Positions 2,598 to 57,618 of a stretch of DNA of 64,000 nucleotides are shown piece by piece. Every line of letters begins with the position of its first letter. Position 1 is the stretch's first letter. A program made the position numbers and the translations under genes. Source of the DNA: Candidatus Kaiserbacteria bacterium (GTDB taxonomy: Bacteria > Patescibacteriota > Minisyncoccia > Phycocordibacterales > UBA2100); NCBI GenBank assembly GCA_016217925.1, contig JACRFK010000005.1, positions 44,170-108,169 of the forward strand, given 5' to 3'. The notes under the pieces are model-generated. The model had not been told where the DNA came from. It saw only the letters and a list, made by a program, of their open reading frames with translations, and searched no databases.

Positions 2598-4778
2598 TTA
2601 CTCTGAATGTAATTCGGCTCCCGCACTCGCGACGCGCTCTGCAAGCGCGGGGTAGTTCACGAGTGACGGGTCATGCTCGACGAGTGATTGCGCCTCCGTG
2701 CGCGCGGCCTGGATGAGCTTCACATTTTTGAGCGCCTCCATGCCGAGGTCGCTCACACCCCACTGTTTGCGGCCGAAGAGGTCTCCCGCGCCGCGATTCT
2801 CGAGGTCGGCTTCAGCGAGCTTAAATCCGTCGGAACTTTGCTCGAGTGCTTTTAAGCGCTTCAGCGACATCTCTCCTTTTGTTTCGGGCACGAGGAAACA
2901 TTGTGGGGGGTGAGACGAGCGCATTACACGACCGCGAAGTTGGTGCAGTTGTGCAAGCCCGAATCGCTCGGCGCCTTCTATCAAAATAATAGTGGCATTG
3001 GGCACATTGACCCCCACCTCGACGACGGATGTCGCGACGAGGACGTGTATCCTTCCCGCGACGAAATCGGCCATTCCCTCGTCTTTTTCGCCCGGCCGCA
3101 TTGCCCCATGTAGAAGCCCGACCGTATATTCGGGGAAGACGTCTTTTTGTAATCTTTTGGCCTCCGCTTTTGCGCTCTTTGCTTGCAGCGCATTTATTTT
3201 TGCGGGGTCGGGCTCCTCGATACGCGGACAAATGACGAATGCCTGCCTGCCTTTCTCCAGTTCTCCACGCACCGCCTCATATGCGCTCGCGCGCTCGGCC
3301 GGCTTCACGATTTTTGTGGTTATCTTCGCGCGTCCCGGCGGCAGTTCGTCGAGGACCGAGATATCAAGGTCGCCATAGAGCGTAAGCGCGAGCGTGCGCG
3401 GTATTGGTGTCGCAGTCATGGAGAGGAAATGCGGCGCGGCGTCTCCCTTGTGTGCAAGTTCGCGTCTTTGCTTCGTCCCAAATCGGTGTTGTTCGTCAAC
3501 GATACAGAGCGCGAGATGTTGGAATTTGACCGATTTTTGAATGAGCGCATGTGTGCCGACGAGCATCGCGATCTCACCACTCTCAACCCATTTCAGTAAC
3601 TGCGCGCGTGAAATATCCGTCGCCTCGCCGCGCTTCACCTTGGAGGGGAATTTCTTGCAGCCGCTTCCTGTCATGAGCGCGATATTGATAGGCAGGTGCG
3701 AGAAGTATTCAATGAACGACTGGAAATGTTGCTGCGCCAATATTTCCGTCGGTGCCATGTAGGCGACCTGGAGCGTTCCGCTTTCGCGCTGCGGCGGCCG
3801 TGAGTTTACTACCGCATAGGCAGTCGCAGCGGCGACCAAGGTCTTCCCGCTTCCCACATCGCCCTCCAAGAGCCGCGCCATCGGATGCTTCTTTTCGAAG
3901 TCGGAGAGAATACTCGTCACGGCGCGCTTCTGCGCACCCGTCGGCGGGAAGGGAATGGTCGAAAGAAATTTCTCCGCAAGCGCCGCGCCGTCGCGGATGG
4001 GGAATGAAGCAAGTGAATCATTCTCTTGCCGTTCGCGGGCGCGTGCTACTTGTATGGCAAATATCTCTTCAAACGCGAAGCGCTTGCGGGCGGCCTCGGC
4101 GTGCCGTAGGTCGTCCGGTTTGTGGATGTATAACAGCGCACTCTGGATGTCGGGGAGGTTGTACCGTTTTACGATATCGGCAGGAATGGGGTCGTCGACC
4201 GAATCTAAAATATTTGCGGCGTAGAGTTTGTCGAACGCATGGCGGAACCACAACGAGGTCACCCCCCGACTTTCGGGATACACCGCGAAGAAAGTCCCGG
4301 GTTCTTTGTTTGTCGCCGCGGCGGGTTTGAAAAGCCCCGCTTCAGTCCTGTCGGCGGGTTCGACGTGTGGATTCGCGAGATACGGCTTGCCCGTTTTACC
4401 GCTGACCACGCCCACCGCCTTGACGAACATTCCTTCGGCGAATTTCTTGGCAAGGTACGGCTGATGGAACCACATCACTTTCACCGAGCCGGATGAGTCG
4501 GTAATCACCGCCTCGCCGACGGGAATTCTACGCTTCCACGATTTTCTCGTGTCGAGCTTCGAGATCGTGCCGAAAATCGTCACCGATTCTCCGGCCACAA
4601 GGCCCACGATGTTCGAGTCCGCCCCAGCTTGGTCGTACCGTGCAGGGAAGTGGTAGAGGAGGTCGCGCACCGTGAGGATGCCGAGCTTCTTCAATGCGCG
4701 TATTTGAGGCGGCGCGAGCCGGAAATGCTTCGTGAGAAGGTCGTTTGGGTGCATGTGCGCATCATACATCCGCAACAA
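2598..4778 (-). CDS. recG: ATP-dependent DNA helicase RecG
   Basis: 726 aa; helicase motifs GSGKT, DEQHRFG, MTATPIPRT; wedge-domain N-terminus; start is either TTG at 4778 or ATG at 4769. Confidence 0.9.
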   Translation of the reverse strand: MLRMYDAHMHPNDLLTKHFRLAPPQIRALKKLGILTVRDLLYHFPARYDQAGADSNIVGLVAGESVTIFGTISKLDTRKSWKRRIPVGEAVITDSSGSVKVMWFHQPYLAKKFAEGMFVKAVGVVSGKTGKPYLANPHVEPADRTEAGLFKPAAATNKEPGTFFAVYPESRGVTSLWFRHAFDKLYAANILDSVDDPIPADIVKRYNLPDIQSALLYIHKPDDLRHAEAARKRFAFEEIFAIQVARARERQENDSLASFPIRDGAALAEKFLSTIPFPPTGAQKRAVTSILSDFEKKHPMARLLEGDVGSGKTLVAAATAYAVVNSRPPQRESGTLQVAYMAPTEILAQQHFQSFIEYFSHLPINIALMTGSGCKKFPSKVKRGEATDISRAQLLKWVESGEIAMLVGTHALIQKSVKFQHLALCIVDEQHRFGTKQRRELAHKGDAAPHFLSMTATPIPRTLALTLYGDLDISVLDELPPGRAKITTKIVKPAERASAYEAVRGELEKGRQAFVICPRIEEPDPAKINALQAKSAKAEAKRLQKDVFPEYTVGLLHGAMRPGEKDEGMADFVAGRIHVLVATSVVEVGVNVPNATIILIEGAERFGLAQLHQLRGRVMRSSHPPQCFLVPETKGEMSLKRLKALEQSSDGFKLAEADLENRGAGDLFGRKQWGVSDLGMEALKNVKLIQAARTEAQSLVEHDPSLVNYPALAERVASAGAELHSE

Positions 4779-4779
4779 G

Positions 4780-4819
4780 CCCCGACGCTATGGTCGGGGC
4801 CCCGGCCATAGCGTCGGGG
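4780..4819. promoter_or_regulatory. 40-bp near-perfect palindrome abutting the recG start codon
   Basis: ccccgacgctatggtcgggg | ccccggccatagcgtcgggg are reverse complements with one T.G position. Confidence 0.35.
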
Positions 4820-4905
4820 TTATGCACAGTCCCGTGGCCGGTATCTTGCGCGCCTGTATTTGATGAGTACTATGGGCGTGTAAAAGTGTAGCAACCATAA
4901 AAAAT

Positions 4906-5043
4906 ATGACATTCCACGAAGATGAAGAAAAAGATCCGCTCGCCATTAGCGAAGAGGCAATCGGCGAAGTGCTTGATGAAGACGCCGACGAGGACGAGGT
5001 GGCAAGTGCCCCGCTAGAAGACGACGAAAAGGCGTGGGAATAA
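4906..5043 (+). CDS. putative small acidic protein (45 aa) ending inside a 38-bp perfect palindrome
   Basis: MTFHEDEEKDPLAISEEAIGEVLDEDADEDEVASAPLEDDEKAWE; stop codon lies within the hairpin gggaataaagcgaggccg-ta-cggcctcgctttattccc (5036..5073). Confidence 0.2.
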   Translation: MTFHEDEEKDPLAISEEAIGEVLDEDADEDEVASAPLEDDEKAWE

Positions 5044-5127
5044 AGCGAGGCCGTACGGCCTCGCTTTATTCCCACTCTCCACACGGGTTTTCATCCCGCA
5101 TTGTGGAGACGTGGTACCATTTCCTCT

Positions 5128-5607
5128 ATGAGTGAAACAGGCGTCATAGACCTCAACGGTAAGTCGATACTCATTATCGAGGATGATCCGCTCTTGCACA
5201 GCCTTCTTGCGGACAAAATGAAGCAGCTCCGCGATAAGGGAGTCAAAGTGTTCCCGACCATGAGCGCGGAAGAGGGTCTCAAACAGGCGCAAGAGTCCAA
5301 GCCCGACCTTATCATGCTCGACCTCGTTCTACCGACTATGGACGGCTTCGAGTTTTTGCGGCAGCTGCGGGCTATTCCCGGTCACGAGAAGACTCCCGTT
5401 GTCGTACTATCAAATCTGAGTGCAGACACCGACAAAGAGCGGGCGCGGAGCCTCGGTGTCATTGCGTATATGGTCAAGGCGGATTTTTCGTTGAGCGAGA
5501 TATCGGCCGCCGTCGAACAAATATTGCAGGGTAAGCAGATGTCGCCGCCCAAACCGGTTGACGGGACTCTTACGAAAACTCCGTTGGGGTACATGACCTA
5601 TCTATAA
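5128..5607 (+). CDS. single-domain response regulator (CheY-like receiver)
   Basis: IIEDDPLL...DLIMLDLVLPTMDGFEFL...K receiver signature; no output domain. Confidence 0.8.
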   Translation: MSETGVIDLNGKSILIIEDDPLLHSLLADKMKQLRDKGVKVFPTMSAEEGLKQAQESKPDLIMLDLVLPTMDGFEFLRQLRAIPGHEKTPVVVLSNLSADTDKERARSLGVIAYMVKADFSLSEISAAVEQILQGKQMSPPKPVDGTLTKTPLGYMTYL

Positions 5608-5654
5608 GAGTTGTTAGCGATTCGCGCGGGTGACGACTCGAAACGGCGCTACAT

Positions 5655-6872
5655 ATGCCCGAGACAAAATCCGAGAAAGCAATATCGTCGACGGAGCCTC
5701 TGCAGCTGGACGCCTTTTCGTTGCGTCTGAAGTTAGTGCTCGCTTTTGCGGTCTTGAGTCTGCTGCCTTTCATCTTCATCGCCGTCCGCATTACGGGAAT
5801 GTGGAAATACATCGCGGGGCTTTCGGCGCAAGGGAATTTCGCCGACTCGGAACTTGCGCGCGCGGTAACCGAGCAGAGCAACGCCTTCATTGTGGGAAGC
5901 ATTGAGTTTTCGGTAGTCTTTTTCATACTCGTCTGCGCCGGCATTATCTTTGCGGACCGCATTCTTGTGGGGCCGTTGTACAAGATTATTGATTGGATGC
6001 GCACCGCACGGGAAAATAAGTTCGCCGCACTTGCGCCGCTTCCGGTACAGAGCGGGGACGAGTGGAGCGCTCTGGGATACGAGATAGATCAGTCCATCAA
6101 ATACTTCCAGGAGGTGGAATCGCGTGAGCGTCAGATAGCCGAAGAGAAGGGGGAATTCATATCGGTCGCCGCGCACCAGTTGCGCACCCCTCTCACGGGG
6201 CTCAAATGGACGCTTGAGGTCTTGCGGGATTCCTCGACGACTCCCGAGAGTAAAGCAAAACTCCTCGACCAGGTATCGGGGACCACGGAGCGCATGGTGC
6301 GCTTGGTGGACGACGTGCTCGACGTTGCGAAGATCGAAGAGGGAAAGTTCGGATACGAGTATGCGATTACGGACATTATCGGCCCGATGCAACACCTGAT
6401 AAACGATTTTCTGGTGGTCGGGAAGAGCCGCGATGTCGCCCTCGTGTTCGAGCACGGAGAGGTCGCTCTCCCTGTCTACATGGATGTCAATCGCGTTACC
6501 CTCGCGGTATCGAACCTCATTTCCAATAGTCTCGATTACACGCGCGCGGGCGGGCGCATCACCCTGCGGATTGAGCGAGCCGGCCGGCAAGTCAGGATAT
6601 CGGTGCAAGATACCGGCATCGGTATATCACCGGAAGACAAAAGACGGCTATTCACGAAATTCTACCGCGGCGAAAGCGCGCGACGTATGCATCCGGATGG
6701 CTCGGGCCTCGGACTCTTCATCGCACGCAATGTCGCTCTTCGCCACGGCGGCGACGTGACCGTCGAATCCGAAGCCGGCAAAGGGTCAACCCTCTCTTTC
6801 AATGTGCCGCTTGAAAAGGCGGATATGGGCAAGGTGGAAGTTTCAGTAGGCAACTTTTTCGCCAGCTTTTGA
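5655..6872 (+). CDS. sensor histidine kinase (2 TM, HisKA + HATPase_c)
   Basis: H-box AAHQLRTPLTGLKW; N/G1/G2 boxes (DTGIGI, GSGLGL); N-terminal TM helices. Confidence 0.85.
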   Translation: MPETKSEKAISSTEPLQLDAFSLRLKLVLAFAVLSLLPFIFIAVRITGMWKYIAGLSAQGNFADSELARAVTEQSNAFIVGSIEFSVVFFILVCAGIIFADRILVGPLYKIIDWMRTARENKFAALAPLPVQSGDEWSALGYEIDQSIKYFQEVESRERQIAEEKGEFISVAAHQLRTPLTGLKWTLEVLRDSSTTPESKAKLLDQVSGTTERMVRLVDDVLDVAKIEEGKFGYEYAITDIIGPMQHLINDFLVVGKSRDVALVFEHGEVALPVYMDVNRVTLAVSNLISNSLDYTRAGGRITLRIERAGRQVRISVQDTGIGISPEDKRRLFTKFYRGESARRMHPDGSGLGLFIARNVALRHGGDVTVESEAGKGSTLSFNVPLEKADMGKVEVSVGNFFASF

Positions 6873-7095
6873 ATCCACCGTGAGGTGCCGCCGAAGGCGG
6901 TTCGACTGTCGGCCGTAGGCCGATGGGAGAAGGTTCACGTCGGAACGAGCACGTTCCGACGCAAAGTGCGGACCACGATACGAGGAGTGTCACGCACGAA
7001 CGAGCACGTTCGGGCGTCGTAAGCATGAGCACGCGCGGGCCAAGTAAGAGAAGGTTCACGTCGGAACGAGCACGTTCCGACGTAAAGTGCGGACC
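6862..7095. repeat. repeat family A locus 1: ~100-nt stop-codon-embedded element with a second partial copy and a related hairpin
   Basis: 6862..6963 is near-identical to 21790..21890; the 24-nt perfect hairpin cgtcggaacgagcacgttccgacg occurs at 6938..6961 and 7059..7082, with related cgaacgagcacgttcg at 6996..7011. Confidence 0.65.
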
Positions 7096-7122
7096 AAAAC
7101 CCGTTTGTGATAGTATAAAGTC

Positions 7123-7458: not shown

Positions 7459-7579
7459 AGCATCTTTTAAAACCCCATCTACTTCGTTGCGGGGCCCCAG
7501 CGTCACCGTCGCCGTACCTCCAGTACGTCTCCGTCGCCGCTTTCCCCGCGCCTCGTACCTGGAGTTTTAAAACACGCTC
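7456..7579. mobile_element. repeat family B copy 1: MITE-like element with ~17-nt terminal inverted repeats, starting at the TAG stop of the upstream gene
   Basis: TAGAGCATCTTTTAAAAC...GTTTTAAAACACGCTC; interior ~90% identical to copy 3 at 57042..57163. Confidence 0.6.
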
Positions 7580-13656: not shown

Positions 13657-13809
13657 AGCACGTTTTTAAACCTGCGCTTCAGTGCGAGCTTCTCTGCGGT
13701 CGCTATCTGGCGCTGCTGCGCCAGCGCTCAATCTCGCCGCCGCCGCGGCTGCGAAGACCGCAGAGAAGCCCGCCCCTCGCTCCGGTTAGACGTTTTAAAA
13801 CATGCTCTA
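13654..13809. mobile_element. repeat family B copy 2: MITE-like element starting at the TAG stop codon
   Basis: TAGAGCACGTTTTTAAAC...GTTTTAAAACATGCTCTA terminal inverted repeats; divergent interior carrying its own long inverted repeat (gcttctctgcggtc...gaccgcagagaagc). Confidence 0.6.
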
Positions 13810-13830
13810 GTGGTACAATGGCGAAATGGA

Positions 13831-13911
13831 CCCCGTTAGAAGCTTTGTGGAATTTTCACTGGTAGCAAAAAGTATCGCTCGAATTTCAATATCCTATGGC
13901 TTCTAACGGGG
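13831..13911. repeat. repeat family C copy 1: 13-nt perfect dyad CCCCGTTAGAAGC...GCTTCTAACGGGG around a 55-nt AT-rich loop
   Basis: The 3' arm encodes the ATG and first codons (MASNGV) of the downstream gene. Confidence 0.6.
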
Positions 13912-14237
13912 TGGACCTCGCGCAAAAGAAGTGTGTTGCATGCGAAGGCGGCGCAGAGCCAATGACTCCCATGGAGGCGATGGCGCTCCTCACGCACCTC
14001 AAGGGGTGGGCGCTGGCAAAAGATTTTAAAAAGATATCAAAACAATTCAAGTTCAAGAATTTTCTTGAAGCAATGGAGTTTGCCAACAAGATAACGCCGA
14101 TAGCGGAAGCAGAAGGCCATCATCCTGACCTCGAAATAGGCTGGGGAAGGGTCGGTATCGAACTCACCACGCACGCCATCAAGGGTCTTTCCGAAAATGA
14201 CTTCATTTTGGCTGCCAAGATAGACAAAATTGCGTGA
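13896..14237 (+). CDS. phhB: pterin-4a-carbinolamine dehydratase (PCD/DCoH)
   Basis: EGHHPD...W..V...L.TH...GLS motif; 113 aa. Confidence 0.8.
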   Translation: MASNGVDLAQKKCVACEGGAEPMTPMEAMALLTHLKGWALAKDFKKISKQFKFKNFLEAMEFANKITPIAEAEGHHPDLEIGWGRVGIELTTHAIKGLSENDFILAAKIDKIA

Positions 14238-14317
14238 CCCCGTTAGAGGCTTCGAGAACTATGCGTATGCCGTTGTTCGTTCCGCAACGAAAAGAATGAC
14301 CGTGGCCTCTAACGGGG
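14238..14317. repeat. repeat family C copy 2 (CCCCGTTAGAGGC...GCCTCTAACGGGG), between PCD stop and pilM
   Basis: Starts directly after the TGA stop of PCD; the 3' arm is followed by a TATAAT box and then the pilM ATG. Confidence 0.6.
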
Positions 14318-14332
14318 TGATATAATTTCACA

Positions 14333-18933: not shown

Positions 18934-19096
18934 CCCCGTTAGAGGCTTCGCGTTTCAAAAAACAATAAATGTATGAACCCCGTTAGAAGCTTCGTAAAAT
19001 ATCTTTCAGTATGTACTTTATAATTTATTGCCCAATATCCTATGGCTTCTAACGGGGTGAACCAAGCAGATACAAATAAAGAGGCCTCTAACGGGG
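18934..19096. repeat. repeat family C copy 3: nested double dyad (outer CCCCGTTAGAGGC/GCCTCTAACGGGG, inner CCCCGTTAGAAGC/GCTTCTAACGGGG)
   Basis: 5' arms at 18934 and 18978; 3' arms at 19045 and 19084; both 3' arms are translated in-frame as MASNGV...EASNGA at the N-terminus of the receiver protein. Confidence 0.6.
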
Positions 19097-19497
19097 CGGC
19101 CGATACACCGGCAAAAAAAGGGACAATTCTTCTCATCGATGATGACAAGTTCCTTTTGGATATGTACGGGATGAAATTTTCTCAAAGCGGATATACGGTC
19201 GAAGCGTGTTTATCAGGAAATGAGGCGCTCGGCGTCTTGCGCGGCGGATTCCAGCCCGACGTGCTCCTCTTTGATCTGACCATGCCAGAGCTCGATGGAT
19301 TTTCATTCCTAAAGGCAATTTCTGATGAGCGTCTTGCGACTAATTCGCTCAAGATCGCGCTCACGAACCAAAGCGATGAATCGGAAAAAACAAAGGCGAT
19401 GGAGATGGGCGCTTCACGTTATATCGTGAAGGCGAGCATGATCCCGTCGGAAGTTGTCAACACGGTCAGTGAAGAGCTTTCAAAACGTCACGCGTAA
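19042..19497 (+). CDS. single-domain response regulator (PilG/PilH-like receiver) with a repeat-derived N-terminal extension
   Basis: ILLIDDDKFLLDMYG...DVLLFDLTMPELDGFSFL...K receiver signature; sits between pilB and pilT. Confidence 0.75.
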   Translation: MASNGVNQADTNKEASNGAADTPAKKGTILLIDDDKFLLDMYGMKFSQSGYTVEACLSGNEALGVLRGGFQPDVLLFDLTMPELDGFSFLKAISDERLATNSLKIALTNQSDESEKTKAMEMGASRYIVKASMIPSEVVNTVSEELSKRHA

Positions 19498-20591: not shown

Positions 20592-21800
20592 ATGGCCATC
20601 TTCAAGTACACGGCCCTTGACGCGGAAGGGAACCAGCGGCAAGGAACCATTGATGCCGTCAATATGGACGTGGCAATTGCGGCACTTCAGCGTCGCGGTC
20701 TTGTTATATCCGGTATCGATCCTGCCGAGAGCAAGACGCTTTTGTCACAACGCTTTTCGTTCTTTGACCGCGTGAATAATGCGGACGTCGTCATGCTCTC
20801 AAGGCAGATCACGACGCTCTTCGAAGCGCAGGTCTCGGCCCTCCGCGCGTTCCGATTGCTTGCGGCGGAAGCACGCACTCCGGCCTTAGGCGAGAAATTG
20901 ACGGCTATCGGCAACGATCTGCAAAGTGGTAGCTCGATCTCGGCAGCCCTCGCACGACACCCCGACGTATTCACGCCTTTTTACGTGAACATGGTGCGCG
21001 CGGGGGAGGAATCAGGAAAACTCGATGAGACCTTCGCATACCTTGCCGACTACCTTGACCGCAATTACGAACTTACCCAAAAGGCTCGCAACGCGTTGGT
21101 CTACCCCGCGTTCATCATGCTCACGTTCATTGTGGTCATGGTACTCATGATGACGCTCGTGATCCCGCACCTTTCGGACATGCTTCAAGAGACTGGGCAG
21201 GGCATACCGATCTACACAAAGATCGTGATCGGCATTTCACAATTCCTCACCCGCTATATTGCTCTCATCCTCATATTGGTCGTGATAGGAGCGGTCTTCC
21301 TATATCGATTCTCGCGCACAGCACACGGTAGAGAAATGCTCTCGCGCGCACGTCTCGAATCGCCGGCGATCGGCAACATATATCGCAAGATATTTCTTTC
21401 GCGCATCGCCGACAACCTTTCAACAATGCTTCGAAGCGGCATTCAGGTATTGCGTGGCCTCGAGATAACGGGATTGGTAGTCGGGGATGCGGTCTATGAA
21501 AAAGTGCTCGCTGATTCGGCGAACGACGTCAAGGGCGGTATGCCGCTTTCTGAGGCCTTGCGTAAGCATCGGGAGATCCCGGGTATTGTGGTCGCCATGG
21601 TGAAGATCGGCGAGGAGACGGGGAATATGGGGAAGATACTTGAGACTATGGCCCGATTCTATCGTCGAGAAGTGAACAACGCCGTCGACACGCTCGTTGG
21701 CCTCATTGAGCCGTTAATGATCGTTATCCTAGCCGTCGGCGTCGCGATACTTCTCGCGTCAGTCCTCTTGCCTATTTACAACATTGCTTCCAGCTTCTGA
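20592..21800 (+). CDS. pilC: type IV pilus inner-membrane platform protein PilC (GspF family)
   Basis: 402 aa with two GspF repeats and 3-4 TM helices. Confidence 0.9.
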   Translation: MAIFKYTALDAEGNQRQGTIDAVNMDVAIAALQRRGLVISGIDPAESKTLLSQRFSFFDRVNNADVVMLSRQITTLFEAQVSALRAFRLLAAEARTPALGEKLTAIGNDLQSGSSISAALARHPDVFTPFYVNMVRAGEESGKLDETFAYLADYLDRNYELTQKARNALVYPAFIMLTFIVVMVLMMTLVIPHLSDMLQETGQGIPIYTKIVIGISQFLTRYIALILILVVIGAVFLYRFSRTAHGREMLSRARLESPAIGNIYRKIFLSRIADNLSTMLRSGIQVLRGLEITGLVVGDAVYEKVLADSANDVKGGMPLSEALRKHREIPGIVVAMVKIGEETGNMGKILETMARFYRREVNNAVDTLVGLIEPLMIVILAVGVAILLASVLLPIYNIASSF

Positions 21801-21890
21801 ACCCACCGCGAGGTGCCGCCGAAGGCGGTTCGACTGTCGGCCATAGGCCGATGGGAGAAGGTTCACGTCGGAACGAGCACGTTCCGACGA
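21790..21890. repeat. repeat family A locus 2, beginning 8 nt before the pilC stop codon
   Basis: ccagcttctgaacccaccgcgaggtgccgccgaaggcggttcgactgtcggccataggccgatgggagaaggttcacgtcggaacgagcacgttccgacg is ~95% identical to 6862..6963. Confidence 0.65.
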
Positions 21891-21991
21891 ACCGTCCGGT
21901 TATGCACATATGAAGTTGTCCAGTCGTGCCGGGGGTATACAATAGTCAGACTAGTTATCAAGGTAATTTAATAGGTAATTTCTCGTTTATC

Positions 21992-32564: not shown

Positions 32565-32868
32565 AGCGGGGTGGAGCAGTAGTAGCTCGCAAGGCTCAAT
32601 ATGGGCTCGTTCACGAGCAATTGTGAACGGAACACTTGTCAAATTCGGTGAAACCTCTCTCGTGCCACGAGGTGGCAATACCGAGCCAAGTCCCGCCGGC
32701 GGCGGGAAAGGTGTAGAGACTAGATGGCAGGCTCCCAGACGGATACTTGAAAAGTATCGTGAGGGATGAAGGTATAGTCCAGACCACGAATCCACTGGTA
32801 GTGGAGCGGCGAAAGCCGTAGCGGTATGCATAACCTTGAGGTCGCAGGTGCAAGTCCTGCCCCCGCAA
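32565..32868 (+). tRNA. tRNA(CAU) (initiator-like tRNA-fMet; Ile2/elongator Met not excluded) interrupted by a group I intron between U33 and C34
   Basis: 5' exon AGCGGGGTGGAGCAGTAGTAGCTCGCAAGGCT (32565..32596) nearly matches E. coli tRNA-fMet 1-26; 3' exon CATAACCTTGAGGTCGCAGGTGCAAGTCCTGCCCCCGCAA (32829..32868); spliced anticodon loop is CTCATAA; 1:72 A.A mismatch. Confidence 0.8.
32597..32828 (+). ncRNA. self-splicing group I intron, subgroup IC3-like (232 nt, no internal ORF)
   Basis: Conserved core blocks GTCAAATTCGGTGAAACC, TGGCAATACCGAGCCAAG, AAAGGTGTAGAGACTAGATGGCA (R) and AAGGTATAGTCC (S) align with the Azoarcus pre-tRNA-Ile intron; 5' exon ends in U and the intron ends in G. Confidence 0.8.
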
Positions 32869-52172: not shown

Positions 52173-52248
52173 GGTTCCGACATCGTATCAGACTCGCGGT
52201 CAGCATAAAACTCGCGTCGGAATCCCGAACGTCGGCCGACACTTGTCC

Positions 52249-52278
52249 TATGCTAGTGTTTTGCAAAACACTAGCATA
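52249..52278. promoter_or_regulatory. perfect 30-bp palindrome upstream of the arsR-family gene (candidate operator)
   Basis: tatgctagtgttttgcaaaacactagcata. Confidence 0.6.
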
Positions 52279-52293
52279 AGGTAGAATACGGGG

Positions 52294-52572
52294 ATGGCGA
52301 GCGGGAAAAACTATAGGCAAATCGAACGCATCGTGAAAGGATTCGCGAGCCACCGGCGGCTTCAGATTTTGGATCTTCTGAAGCGCGAACCGGAGTTGTC
52401 TGTGGAAGATATTTCCGAACGCCTCGTTTTGGGCTATGAGAATACGTCCGACCATGTGCGCAAGCTTGCGATAGCCGGCTTGGTGATGAAACGCAACGAG
52501 GGGAGCGCCGTGCGGCACAAGCTCACCCCGCGAGCCGAAGCTATACTAGTGTTTTGCAAAAGACTAGTATAA
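52294..52572 (+). CDS. ArsR/SmtB-family HTH transcriptional regulator
   Basis: HRRLQILDLLKREPELSVEDISERLVLGYENTSDHVRKLAIAGLV winged-helix pattern; 92 aa. Confidence 0.75.
   Translation: MASGKNYRQIERIVKGFASHRRLQILDLLKREPELSVEDISERLVLGYENTSDHVRKLAIAGLVMKRNEGSAVRHKLTPRAEAILVFCKRLV
52542..52571. promoter_or_regulatory. second 30-bp palindrome (one mismatch) overlapping the arsR stop, upstream of the csaA-like gene
   Basis: tatactagtgttttgcaaaagactagtata shares the core TAGTGTTTTGCAAAAsACTAG with 52249..52278. Confidence 0.6.
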
Positions 52573-52601
52573 GGGGAAGGCAAACACGGTCAACAAGTCG
52601 T

Positions 52602-55997: not shown

Positions 55998-57044
55998 ATG
56001 ATGCAAACAGAGAGGCTCCGGCCATACTTTTTGATGATAGTGCTCGCGGCGGCTCTCGTGCTGACCGCTTTTATATTCGCACCCTTTTTCCAGCCGCTTG
56101 CGCTTGCTGCGGTGTTTGCGGTGGTGCTGCAAGGACTCTGTAGAAGGATTTCAGGTCTTCTCGGCGGGTGGCCGAGCGTCGCCGCCTTGCTCACGGTCAT
56201 CGTGAGCGTCGTTCTCATACTGCTCCCGCTCTCGCTCGTCGGCGTGCTCGTGGGCAACGAAGCGCGCGAGATGTACTTCTCGCTCGAAGAGGGAAGCGGC
56301 CGCAGCACCATATCAGAACTCTTCTTGCGCGTAGATGAATCCTTCGGCGGCGCAATCCCCGGCCTCAGTGAATTTGCCCGCGACATCTCGGCCAACGTGG
56401 ATACGTATACAAAAGAAGCTTTGCAGTGGATTACCTCTCATGCGGGAGATATTTTCTCAAGCATCTCTTCGCTCCTCCTCTCGTTCTTCATTTTTTTCAT
56501 CGCGCTCTACTACCTGCTGCGCGACGGCAAGCGCGTGCGGCAAATGCTCATCGAGCTCTCACCACTCAGCAATAGGGAAGATATGGGTGTCTTCGACCGA
56601 CTTGAGCTCGCGGTGAATTCCGTCATCAAAGGCAATCTCACGATAGCGCTCATACAGGGGATTCTCACGATGATAGGCTTCACGCTCTTCGGCGTGCCGA
56701 GCGCCGTCTTGTGGGGAACGGTGGCCGCCGTCGCGGCGCTCATCCCGGGCATCGGGACCGCGCTCGTCTTTATCCCCGCAGTTGCGTTCCTCTTTTTCAC
56801 CGGGGAAACACCGCCGGCGCTCGGACTTCTCGTGTGGGGCGCTTTTGCCGTGGGACTCGTCGACAACATTTTGAGTCCCAAGCTCATCGGCAGCGGGATG
56901 CGTCTCCACCCGATGCTTGTCCTCCTTGCGGTACTCGGCGGCATAATGTTCTTCGGCCCGATAGGCATCTTTCTCGGTCCCTTGGCGCTTAGCCTTCTCT
57001 TCGCACTTCTTTCGATATACGCCGATGTTTCGCGCCGGGCCTAG
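55998..57044 (+). CDS. AI-2E family transporter (PerM/UPF0118)
   Basis: 8 TM; YYLLRDG motif; 348 aa. Confidence 0.75.
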   Translation: MMQTERLRPYFLMIVLAAALVLTAFIFAPFFQPLALAAVFAVVLQGLCRRISGLLGGWPSVAALLTVIVSVVLILLPLSLVGVLVGNEAREMYFSLEEGSGRSTISELFLRVDESFGGAIPGLSEFARDISANVDTYTKEALQWITSHAGDIFSSISSLLLSFFIFFIALYYLLRDGKRVRQMLIELSPLSNREDMGVFDRLELAVNSVIKGNLTIALIQGILTMIGFTLFGVPSAVLWGTVAAVAALIPGIGTALVFIPAVAFLFFTGETPPALGLLVWGAFAVGLVDNILSPKLIGSGMRLHPMLVLLAVLGGIMFFGPIGIFLGPLALSLLFALLSIYADVSRRA

Positions 57045-57163
57045 AGCGCGTTTTAAACCCCATCTACTTCGTTGCGGGGTCCCAGCGTCGCCGTCGCCGT
57101 ACTTCTAGTACGTCTCCGTCGCCGCTATCCCTGCGCCTCGTATATGGGGTTTAAAACGCGCTC
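57042..57163. mobile_element. repeat family B copy 3: MITE-like element starting at the TAG stop codon
   Basis: TAGAGCGCGTTTTAAACCCC...GGGGTTTAAAACGCGCTC perfect 18-nt terminal inverted repeats; interior ~90% identical to 7456..7579. Confidence 0.65.
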
Positions 57164-57193: not shown

Positions 57194-57221
57194 TTGACAT
57201 ACCCCCTGGGGGGTATATACT
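57194..57221 (+). promoter_or_regulatory. sigma70-like promoter (TTGACA...TATACT) with embedded CsoR-type operator ATACCCCCTGGGGGGTAT
   Basis: -35 TTGACA at 57194, -10 TATACT at 57216; GC-rich inverted repeat (57199..57216) between them resembles the B. subtilis CsoR box (ATACCC-N-GGGTAT). Confidence 0.55.
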
Positions 57222-57235
57222 CTTGCGGATATGGG

Positions 57236-57343
57236 CCCCGTTAGAGACCGCGGTCGCTCAAAATAATAATAGGACGCCTTTTACGCTAAAACATTTTATG
57301 TCTTTACGGAAAAACATACGACCGCGACCTGTCTCTAACGGGG
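57236..57343. repeat. repeat family C copy 4 (CCCCGTTAGAGAC...GTCTCTAACGGGG, arms extended to ~22 nt), spanning the csoR 5' UTR and start codon
   Basis: The 3' arm is translated in-frame as VSNGV within the CsoR N-terminus; the ATG at 57298 lies in the loop. Confidence 0.6.
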
Positions 57344-57618
57344 TGGGACATGCGCACAGCAAGAGCACGGAAAAAATAGTCCGTCGGCTCAAAATACTGG
57401 AGGGGCAGGTTCGCGGGCTTCAGGATATGATAAAAAACGATACATATTGTGTCGACGTCATTACGCAAACATCGGCGGTAAAGCAAGGCCTTTCGAATGT
57501 GGAGGATATGATACTAGAGAACCACCTTTCTACCTGCGTCGTCGACCAGATAAGGTCCGGAGACTCCAAGAAGGCAATCGGCGAAGTCTTAAAGGTCTAT
57601 ACGCTCAAACGCAAATAA
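57298..57618 (+). CDS. csoR: copper-sensing transcriptional repressor CsoR (DUF156 family)
   Basis: [21 protein letters not shown]...C...H...C W-X-Y-Z metal-ligand pattern. Confidence 0.8.

Follow-up and report, generated by a model that had tools for sequence, protein, structure and literature searches.

The dyad repeats found in the 64-kb stretch of DNA analysed here (the window) are very probably copies of a non-autonomous cut-and-paste transposon, i.e. a MITE family with 13-nt termini and a 4-bp duplication of the form R|TNNA|Y. The family is mobile and has a target preference, and its insertions rebuild codons and donate extensions to open reading frames. The copies would be moved in trans by a DDE-type transposase, possibly of the IS1380/piggyBac type. 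The initial annotation, made from the window alone, had proposed a selfish mobile hairpin, and this is supported by flanking target duplications, by relatives with empty sites, by nesting and by the occurrence in several phyla. The element family is apparently undescribed; no account of it turned up in literature searches, whether made with the sequence or for MITEs from CPR, Patescibacteria or Parcubacteria.

Ten arms of the CCCCGTTAGARGC pattern (at most one mismatch) are present in the window and form five inverted pairs, compared with 0.15 ± 0.36 arms expected by chance from 100 dinucleotide shuffles of the window. The 13-nt inverted repeats had been reported at four loci, one with a nested pair, and all five pairs were found where they had been placed. 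Every copy is at a gene end and none is inside a gene. Based on Pfam, the neighbouring genes encode PCD, PilM, a PilB-type ATPase, a receiver-domain protein (the response regulator, RR), CsoR and CopA. Arm variants covary inside each copy (GAAGC/GCTTC, GAGGC/GCCTC, GAGAC/GTCTC).

All window features described below are on the + strand. Copy 1 (13831..13911, 81 nt; arms 13831-13843 and 13899-13911) lies in the start codon of PCD, between TGGA repeats at 13827-13830 and 13912-13915. The original ATG is at 13826-13828, an internal ATG at 13896-13898 begins MASNGV, and a rebuilt GTG is found at 13911-13913. Copy 2 (14238..14317, 80 nt) is located between the PCD stop TGA (14235-14237) and the extended -10 box of pilM (TGATATAAT, from 14318), with TGA repeated at 14318-20; the mini-ORF MTVASNGVI is at 14296-14325, ahead of pilM. 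Copy 4 (57236..57343, 108 nt; arms 57236-57257 and 57318-57343), of a long-arm subfamily, is in the start codon of csoR, flanked by TGGG at 57232-57235 and 57344-57347, with an internal ATG at 57298-57300 and a rebuilt GTG at 57343-57345. Its arms have one mismatch each to the pattern and are extended to 22 nt, pairing over 13+9 bp with a 4-nt bulge.

The remaining two copies are nested, as had been noted for 18934-19096. The outer element (18934..19096; arms 18934-18946 and 19084-19096) is 163 nt long with the inner copy and 79 nt without it, and its target was the ATGA overlap of the PilB stop and the RR start. The inner element (18978..19057, 80 nt) is in the ATG previously supplied to RR by the outer element; it is flanked by TGAA at 18974-18977 and 19058-19061 and has an internal ATG at 19042-19044 and a rebuilt GTG at 19057-19059. 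The RR gene (19042..19497) has codons 1-21 (MASNGVNQADTNKEASNGAAD) derived from both elements, the receiver domain beginning at residue 29. The peptides claimed by the initial annotation, i.e. MASNGV in PCD, the RR N-terminus, VSNGV in CsoR and the mini-ORF peptide, are all encoded as described. The 163-nt region is predicted to fold as a nested double hairpin of -61.4 kcal/mol (z = -8.0).

Three of the window insertions split a start codon, A|TGGA|CC in PCD, A|TGAA|CC in the RR ATG supplied by the outer element and A|TGGG|AC in csoR. Copy 2 and the outer element are both on TGA stops, the former at the end of PCD and the latter in the pilB-stop/RR-start overlap, and their flanks consist of TGA and one ambiguous base, which coincides with the terminal G or C of the element. 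The earlier statement that 5' arms directly follow TGA stop codons is correct for these two of the five copies (14238 and 18934); the 5' arms of the remaining three are preceded by the original start codons, as ATGGA, ATGAA and ATGGG. The direct repeats TGGA, TGAA, TGGG and TGA with its ambiguous base had not been pointed out in the initial annotation, nor had the original start codons as targets, the rebuilding of GTG from a terminal G and duplicated TGNN, or the insertions in open reading frames and -35 boxes described below.

Outside the window, one genome per species was scanned for pairs of arms separated by 40-70 nt, which gave at least 113 genome loci. Most are from CPR/Patescibacteria, such as Kaiser-, Kerfeld-, Doudna-, Nomura- and Yanofskybacteria; according to record titles, carriers outside CPR include Planctomycetota, Deltaproteobacteria, Nitrospinota, Nitrospiria, Elusimicrobiota and one gammaproteobacterium. 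The termini are 13-nt terminal inverted repeats (TIRs), 5'-CCCCGTTAGARGC...GCYTCTAACGGGG-3', which are invariant in all five window copies and, among the matches listed, in about 130 copies elsewhere, while the core is variable. A copy is typically 68-121 nt long, with modes at 68 and 80 nt, and there are also 29-nt mini versions and nested composites of up to 174 nt. No copy is long enough to hold a transposase ORF.

Most copies have a 4-bp direct repeat at their flanks, and in 66 of the 129 copies listed it is perfect, when 1/256 would be expected per copy (binomial p ~1e-122). The targets reconstructed from these 66 copies give the logo R|T-N-R-A|Y, corresponding to the consensus R|TNNA|Y, with a purine at -1 in 57 and a pyrimidine following the target-site duplication (TSD) in 47. 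Position 1 of the TSD is T or C in all 66 (T in 56) and position 4 is A or G in all 66 (A in 53). TTAA was rare as a target (1/66).

About 19 of the 66 perfect-TSD copies are located on an ATG or GTG start followed by an ORF of at least 60 codons. Insertion into an A|TGRA| start places the terminal G of the element in front of TGRA; since the terminal G and the duplicated TGNN together form a GTG, a start codon is kept in the original frame. In a further 20 of the 66 the TSD is TTGA/TCAA, and nearly all of the 19 sites that were reconstructed read TTGAC. Most of these have a -10-like hexamer, judged by eye, about 17 nt downstream, and the TTGAC is for this reason taken as a -35 box. Insertion into TTGA|C of such a box leaves TTGAC on either side, as C is the first base of the element.

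About 19 copies in other genomes are inside long ORFs, and all of them are in the PVRS...ASNG(V/A) frame; PVRS...ASNGV is the single reading frame without a stop in either arm. The ten hosts tested with Pfam are all conserved proteins, including the carbamoyl-phosphate synthase large chain, PGK, FolD, a beta-CASP nuclease, a radical-SAM enzyme and ComEC. In-ORF copies are mostly without a clean duplication, especially in Planctomycetota. The length plus 4 is divisible by 3 in 75 of 130 copies (p = 1e-8). As most copies are thus 3n+2 nt long, element and duplication together add whole codons, which makes survival inside genes possible. Purifying selection following random insertion at RTNNAY could by itself account for the clustering at start codons and -35 boxes; true targeting and the selective removal of other RTNNAY insertions from a compact genome are not separable here.

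The initial annotation had also suggested that the element donates a start codon and N-terminal codons, and this holds. An in-frame ATG within the element, ahead of its right arm and with no intervening stop, is present at 15 of the 17 ends that face a struck start codon, compared with 29 of 221 other ends (Fisher p = 1e-10); examples are M-ASNGV, MADK-ASNGV, MEKK-ASNGV and MVEK-ASNGV. Each gene-facing window copy carries such an ATG, and consequently the annotated proteins begin with element-derived residues. In Deltaproteobacteria that use Shine-Dalgarno (SD) sequences, AAGGAGG is found at the equivalent position (L013, L059, L066). In the window genome SD-like motifs were found at 2 of 57 genes, and a -10-like hexamer was located 5-8 nt ahead of the ATG at 17 of 57 genes, compared with 1-7 in shifted controls. 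With few SD motifs and -10-like hexamers so near the ATG, many window genes look leaderless, and judging from the sequence PCD, pilM and csoR are among them. The promoter thought to be carried by the element was not recovered, as a consensus scan found no complete sigma-70 -35/-10 promoter inside any window copy, and of the TATAAT-like boxes reported in the loops a perfect TATAAT is present in the inner copy only. The idea that a read-through transcript would fold into a long stem is supported by prediction, the last position of the stem being the first G of the rebuilt GTG.

In copy 1 an upstream ORF of 26 codons (13826..13906; MDPVRSFVEFSLVAKSIARISISYGF, then the stop) leads from the original PCD ATG to a TAA in the right arm (13904-13906), which is 8 nt past the internal ATG and 5 nt ahead of the GTG. 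Among copies with a length divisible by 3, the upstream ORF from the old ATG is open to the right-arm TAA in 10 of 12 (shuffling p = 1.6e-5), or in 6 of 8 when orthologs are collapsed (p = 0.003), in a post hoc test designed once the data had been seen. We infer a role for this ORF in translational coupling. Translation would begin at the old leaderless 5' AUG and continue across the element as far as the right-arm TAA, and termination there would allow re-initiation at the adjacent AUG or GUG, so that expression is kept. If so, these loci offer a natural test of how leaderless genes tolerate a long structured leader. We put forward only tentatively, as a rather doubtful extension, that the family has been co-opted into, or built for, gene expression in SD-less genomes. 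It would then seek and rebuild start codons and -35 boxes and act as a portable initiation module, in which the upstream ORF from the old leaderless AUG unwinds the hairpin, stops at the arm UAA and permits re-initiation at the donated AUG. Selection would maintain the invariant arms, in the form of an RNA stem or of a site bound by a protein, through which dozens of genes are under common control, and the termini would have been moved between phyla by the putative transposase.

Insertion of one element into another is common, and further nested copies were found at five loci (L016, L028, L061, L090 and L093). In the last four the nesting site is the same, CAGG/CCTG in the terminus of the long-arm subfamily itself. 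The inner copy of the window is about 95 % identical, by a count made by eye, to that at L238, while the host RR proteins are only 80 % identical, and this difference suggests recent spread. A metagenome scan with the 24-nt right end of the window subfamily gave a single contig, with another PCD ortholog, and no sibling copies or parent. Plasmid BLAST with a 68-nt consensus gave nothing relevant. In viral contigs a 14-mer scan gave 120 matches, none with a partner arm nearby, a 14-mer being too short for this collection. One viral arm pair about 2.1 kb apart was rejected, as it is located in ordinary phage genes and includes a coding match to ...EASNGV....

An autonomous parent was sought among arms separated by 300-5000 nt, with up to 3 mismatches allowed, in about 0.8 Mb of genome loci, and only neighbouring MITEs or chance pairs were returned. 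No transposase with these termini was found in the same 0.8 Mb, in the annotated part of the window, in the viral-contig sample or in plasmids. The ORFs adjacent to solitary arms in L026, L050 and L069 are ordinary genes. The cores of copies within one genome are nearly unalignable while the termini are perfect. This is unusual for a recently amplified MITE and needs selection on the termini, turnover by excision and re-insertion, or some other source of core variation. The core of a 68-74-nt CPR subfamily forms a three-way junction with 11 covarying pairs and about 21 strand-specific G.U pairs, hinting at a single-stranded or RNA stage which a simple DDE model does not predict.

These observations bear on a different mode of movement, in which an HUH or tyrosine enzyme (REPIN/RAYT or IS200/IS605-PATE type), and not a DDE enzyme, transposes the hairpin in single-stranded form. 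The per-copy covariation of the arms, the structured subfamily, whose G.U pairs would be A.C mismatches on the other strand, and the failure to find a DDE parent agree with it, and REPINs resemble the present elements as inverted short-repeat doublets that form hairpins, have covarying arms and a high copy number and are mostly intergenic. However, elements of the REP/REPIN and IS200/IS605 types insert next to a fixed tetranucleotide and do not duplicate their target, and REPINs are tied to a single-copy RAYT gene. Here variable 4-bp duplications are found on both sides of copies that also insert in ORFs and start codons, and no RAYT or TnpA gene was found in the annotated parts of the loci or of the window. 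The structured subfamily is also randomly oriented towards the adjacent downstream promoter (4 same, 7 opposite), for which reason a function of its core as an oriented terminator or leader was likewise dropped. We thus consider transposition as single-stranded DNA unlikely.

A MITE is expected to leave empty sites, and the search for these at orthologous loci, already proposed in the initial annotation, located them at the RR start, the PCD start and the PCD stop, all three in a close Kaiserbacteria relative. The RR start is empty in L234 (...GTATGACCGATACA), where the pilB stop overlaps the RR ATG. In L236 the outer element is present alone at the same position, with the junction GGGG|TGACC, the old ATG having become GTG; in the window the corresponding GTGACC has since mutated to GCGGCC. 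L238 has insertions at three positions no more than 20 nt from the RR start, one of them from a sister family with arms CCCCGTGAGAGAA, and its outer-plus-inner composite is at a different site, with the TSD CAAA. The RR N-termini form a corresponding series, which further supports the donation of codons: MTDTPAKKG... without element (133 aa, many genomes, the closest 95 % identical), MSQADTNKQASNGV-TDTPAKKG with the outer element only, MASNGV-NQ(A/P)DT... with outer and inner elements, and decayed forms such as MNQADTTAQTPAAKKG.

The PCD start is empty in L240, which is on the contig of L234 (TGATACAAT-CAGGAA-ATGGATCTC), and in L241, and filled in L048, L239 and L242. At the PCD stop and pilM promoter the site is empty (GCGTGATATAATTTCACGATG) in L240, L241 and L242, and filled in L005. 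At least two subfamilies have struck the PCD ATG, the MASNGV type in the window, L048 and L239, and a 115-nt type with arms ...GAAAT/ATTTC... in L242. A relative with 89 % identity is empty at this site while those with 75-78 % identity are filled, an interspersion that either repeated insertion or precise excision would give. Most of the 120 CsoR relatives listed begin with MGHAHG or a near variant and have no extension (55 of the 120 are 91 aa long), and the element-derived extension (...(V/A)SNGV) was found in only 3 of the 120. The pil operon is conserved in relatives, also where there are no elements.

The PCD orthologs also provide an argument for immobile arms acting as operator half-sites of a dimeric or looping transcription factor, whose regulon would comprise PCD, the pil genes, RR and csoR-copA. 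At three PCD orthologs the core and the synonymous sites vary but the arms do not, the copies are at gene 5' ends, and the arm spacing is constant at 54-55 nt in three copies. Purifying selection in situ as the cause of this invariance is weakened by the empty closer relatives and by the different subfamily at the same site, and repeated insertion or excision is at least as likely an explanation. Moreover, operators would not be flanked by variable 4-bp duplications, be missing from near relatives with filled and empty states interspersed, or occur inside enzymes, in unrelated phyla and nested in each other. We therefore regard an operator origin as very unlikely; the same evidence does not argue against secondary co-option of an element as a binding site.

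The bracketing of PCD by two copies 407 bp apart brings to mind a gene cassette between integron attC-like sites, which are likewise imperfect palindromes with a GTTAGA/TCTAAC core as in typical R boxes, a variable but structured centre and strand-biased structure. In attC sites, however, R'' (RYYYAAC) is at the 5' end and R' (GTTRRRY) at the 3' end, and here the order is reversed, GTTAGAR...YTCTAAC on either strand. No integrase was found among the 20 window ORFs scanned with Pfam and there is no cassette array. In L240 and L241 PCD occupies this locus with neither element beside it, and such empty sites point to simple insertion. The flanking duplications vary in sequence and insertions also occur inside ORFs, and the cassette reading is highly improbable. 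A structured non-coding RNA or leader (riboswitch, thermometer or sRNA) conserved for its fold would fit the very stable predicted stems (z = -5 to -8) and the covariation in the CPR subfamily, but is just as hard to credit given copies in both orientations, inside ORFs and upstream of -35 boxes, where transcription is not required, the target duplications, and the lack of any Rfam 15 match, both in the window (gathering threshold) and in eight loci (E<=1).

As copies of a MITE, the five elements in 64 kb of a small CPR/Patescibacteria genome show how a transposon may persist in a compact genome, by rebuilding the start codon or -35 box that it strikes and by being frame-neutral inside genes. 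The occurrence of the same 13-nt termini in at least six other groundwater phyla points to a shared transposition system that crosses deep lineages. Protein N-termini are rewritten by the insertions (MASNGV... in PCD, 21 residues in RR and 15 in CsoR), and 24-28 residues are inserted into conserved enzymes. This has to be considered when start sites are annotated in CPR genomes or the structures of CPR proteins are modelled.

Several features of the family are precedented singly, i.e. in-frame insertion in Rickettsia palindromic elements (RPEs), gene-proximal siting in Correia elements, and nesting. We have met no description of rebuilt starts and -35 boxes combined with donated ATGs and with frame neutrality in either orientation, nor of invariant termini common to several phyla. 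With regard to mechanism, IS1380/piggyBac elements have CC(C) termini and a 4-5-bp TTAA-like duplication, and piggyBac is excised precisely. The present ends, CC(C)... and ...TCTA..GGG-3' (CCCC...GGGG), and the 4-bp TNNA duplication resemble this definition, and precise excision as in piggyBac would explain the interspersed empty and filled alleles. On the other hand, no such transposase was found next to the present termini and TTAA itself is rare as a target; the IS1380 literature gave no terminal sequences for comparison.

With regard to insertion in genes, RPEs are described as short palindromic repeats found in frame in unrelated conserved protein genes, where they add a peptide while the ORF is kept (Ogata et al. 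2000, as reported in PMC10969869). The in-frame copies of the present family in conserved proteins behave in the same way. The present elements, at 68-96 nt, are shorter than RPEs (about 100-150 bp) and have clear 13-nt TIRs and 4-bp TSDs, many copies are on starts or -35 boxes, and the hosts belong to free-living or episymbiotic groundwater phyla and not to Rickettsia.

Correia elements (CREE/NEMIS) of Neisseria and ERIC are MITEs with TIRs, located just upstream of genes, which can nest, are co-transcribed as long RNA hairpins and can alter expression (PMC10969869). The present family is likewise a gene-proximal, nesting MITE with TIRs. Correia elements duplicate TA and have demonstrated promoters and IHF sites. 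The elements described here, in which no promoter was found, differ from them in their 4-bp duplication at an RTNNAY target, and the rebuilt start codon and the donated ATG are the features that set them apart.

Immediately upstream of csoR, whose start codon carries the insertion at 57236-57343, a palindrome (ATACCCCCTGGGGGGTAT, 57195-57216) is flanked by a -35 box (TTGACA) and a -10 box (TATACT). It looks like a CsoR operator and is a candidate for that role; the MITE studied here would thus separate the coding sequence of csoR from an autoregulated promoter. Further upstream, at 57044-57163, there is a copy of a second repeat family; this copy has 24-nt inverted arms (GAGCGCGTTTTAAACCCCATCTAC / GTATATGGGGTTTAAAACGCGCTC) at a spacing of 72 nt. 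The family is represented twice, also at 7466-7571, by 106-nt copies that are 90 % identical, and is probably another MITE family.

Other repeats and palindromes were present in the window. The PCD promoter is separated from a gene for an ABC substrate-binding protein by an 18-nt inverted repeat (GCGAGCTTCTCTGCGGTC / GACCGCAGAGAAGCCCGC, 13684-13773), the arms of which have a spacing of 54 nt, as in the studied family. A 121-nt repeat (6851-7096 and 21779-21903, 89 % identity) contains up to three tandem hairpin units of the form CGTCGGAACG-AGCA-CGTTCCGACG; it follows the gene of a histidine kinase and precedes one that is pilin-like, and may be a terminator-like feature or a further mobile repeat. 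Two near-identical perfect palindromes of 34 nt (CTATGCTAGTGTTTTGCAAAACACTAGCATAAGG), at 52248-52281 and 52541-52574, 293 nt apart, look like operators and are candidates as such. A group I catalytic intron was detected at 32587-32801 (Rfam match, 69 bits, E = 2e-15), and ARAGORN found no tRNA around it.

Shine-Dalgarno motifs were almost absent from the window (two of 57 genes). In approximately 30 % of its genes the ATG is preceded, at a distance of 5-8 nt, by a -10-like hexamer. On the basis of these two features, leaderless initiation seems to be common in this Kaiserbacteria genome.

In L236 and L237, loci of other bacteria used for comparison, a diversity-generating retroelement (approximately 3600-6140) is located between the response regulator and pilT, and consists of a bAvd-like gene and an RVT_1 reverse transcriptase. 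Its carrier is the relative having only the outer element at the response-regulator start. The retroelement is absent both from the window and from L234, the locus that is empty at this start.

The comparison loci also contain sister families, the termini of which (CCCCGTGAGAGAA, CCCCGTTAGAAAT, CCCATTTAGAAAC and CCCCATTACTGC) are related to those of the studied family but different. These were found in L238 (771-866), L242 (347-461), L050 (7056 and 7653) and L084, the last being a 2.5-kb contig end densely filled with nested copies. In addition, four mini elements of 29 nt consist of two arms of the studied family and a 3-nt joint (L020, 4380-4408; L053, 2299-2327; L040, 4960-4988; L048, 109-137), and two of the four have matching 4-bp flanks, TTTA in L053 and CAAG in L048. 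Such mini elements may be deletion derivatives, or evidence on the origin of new cores.
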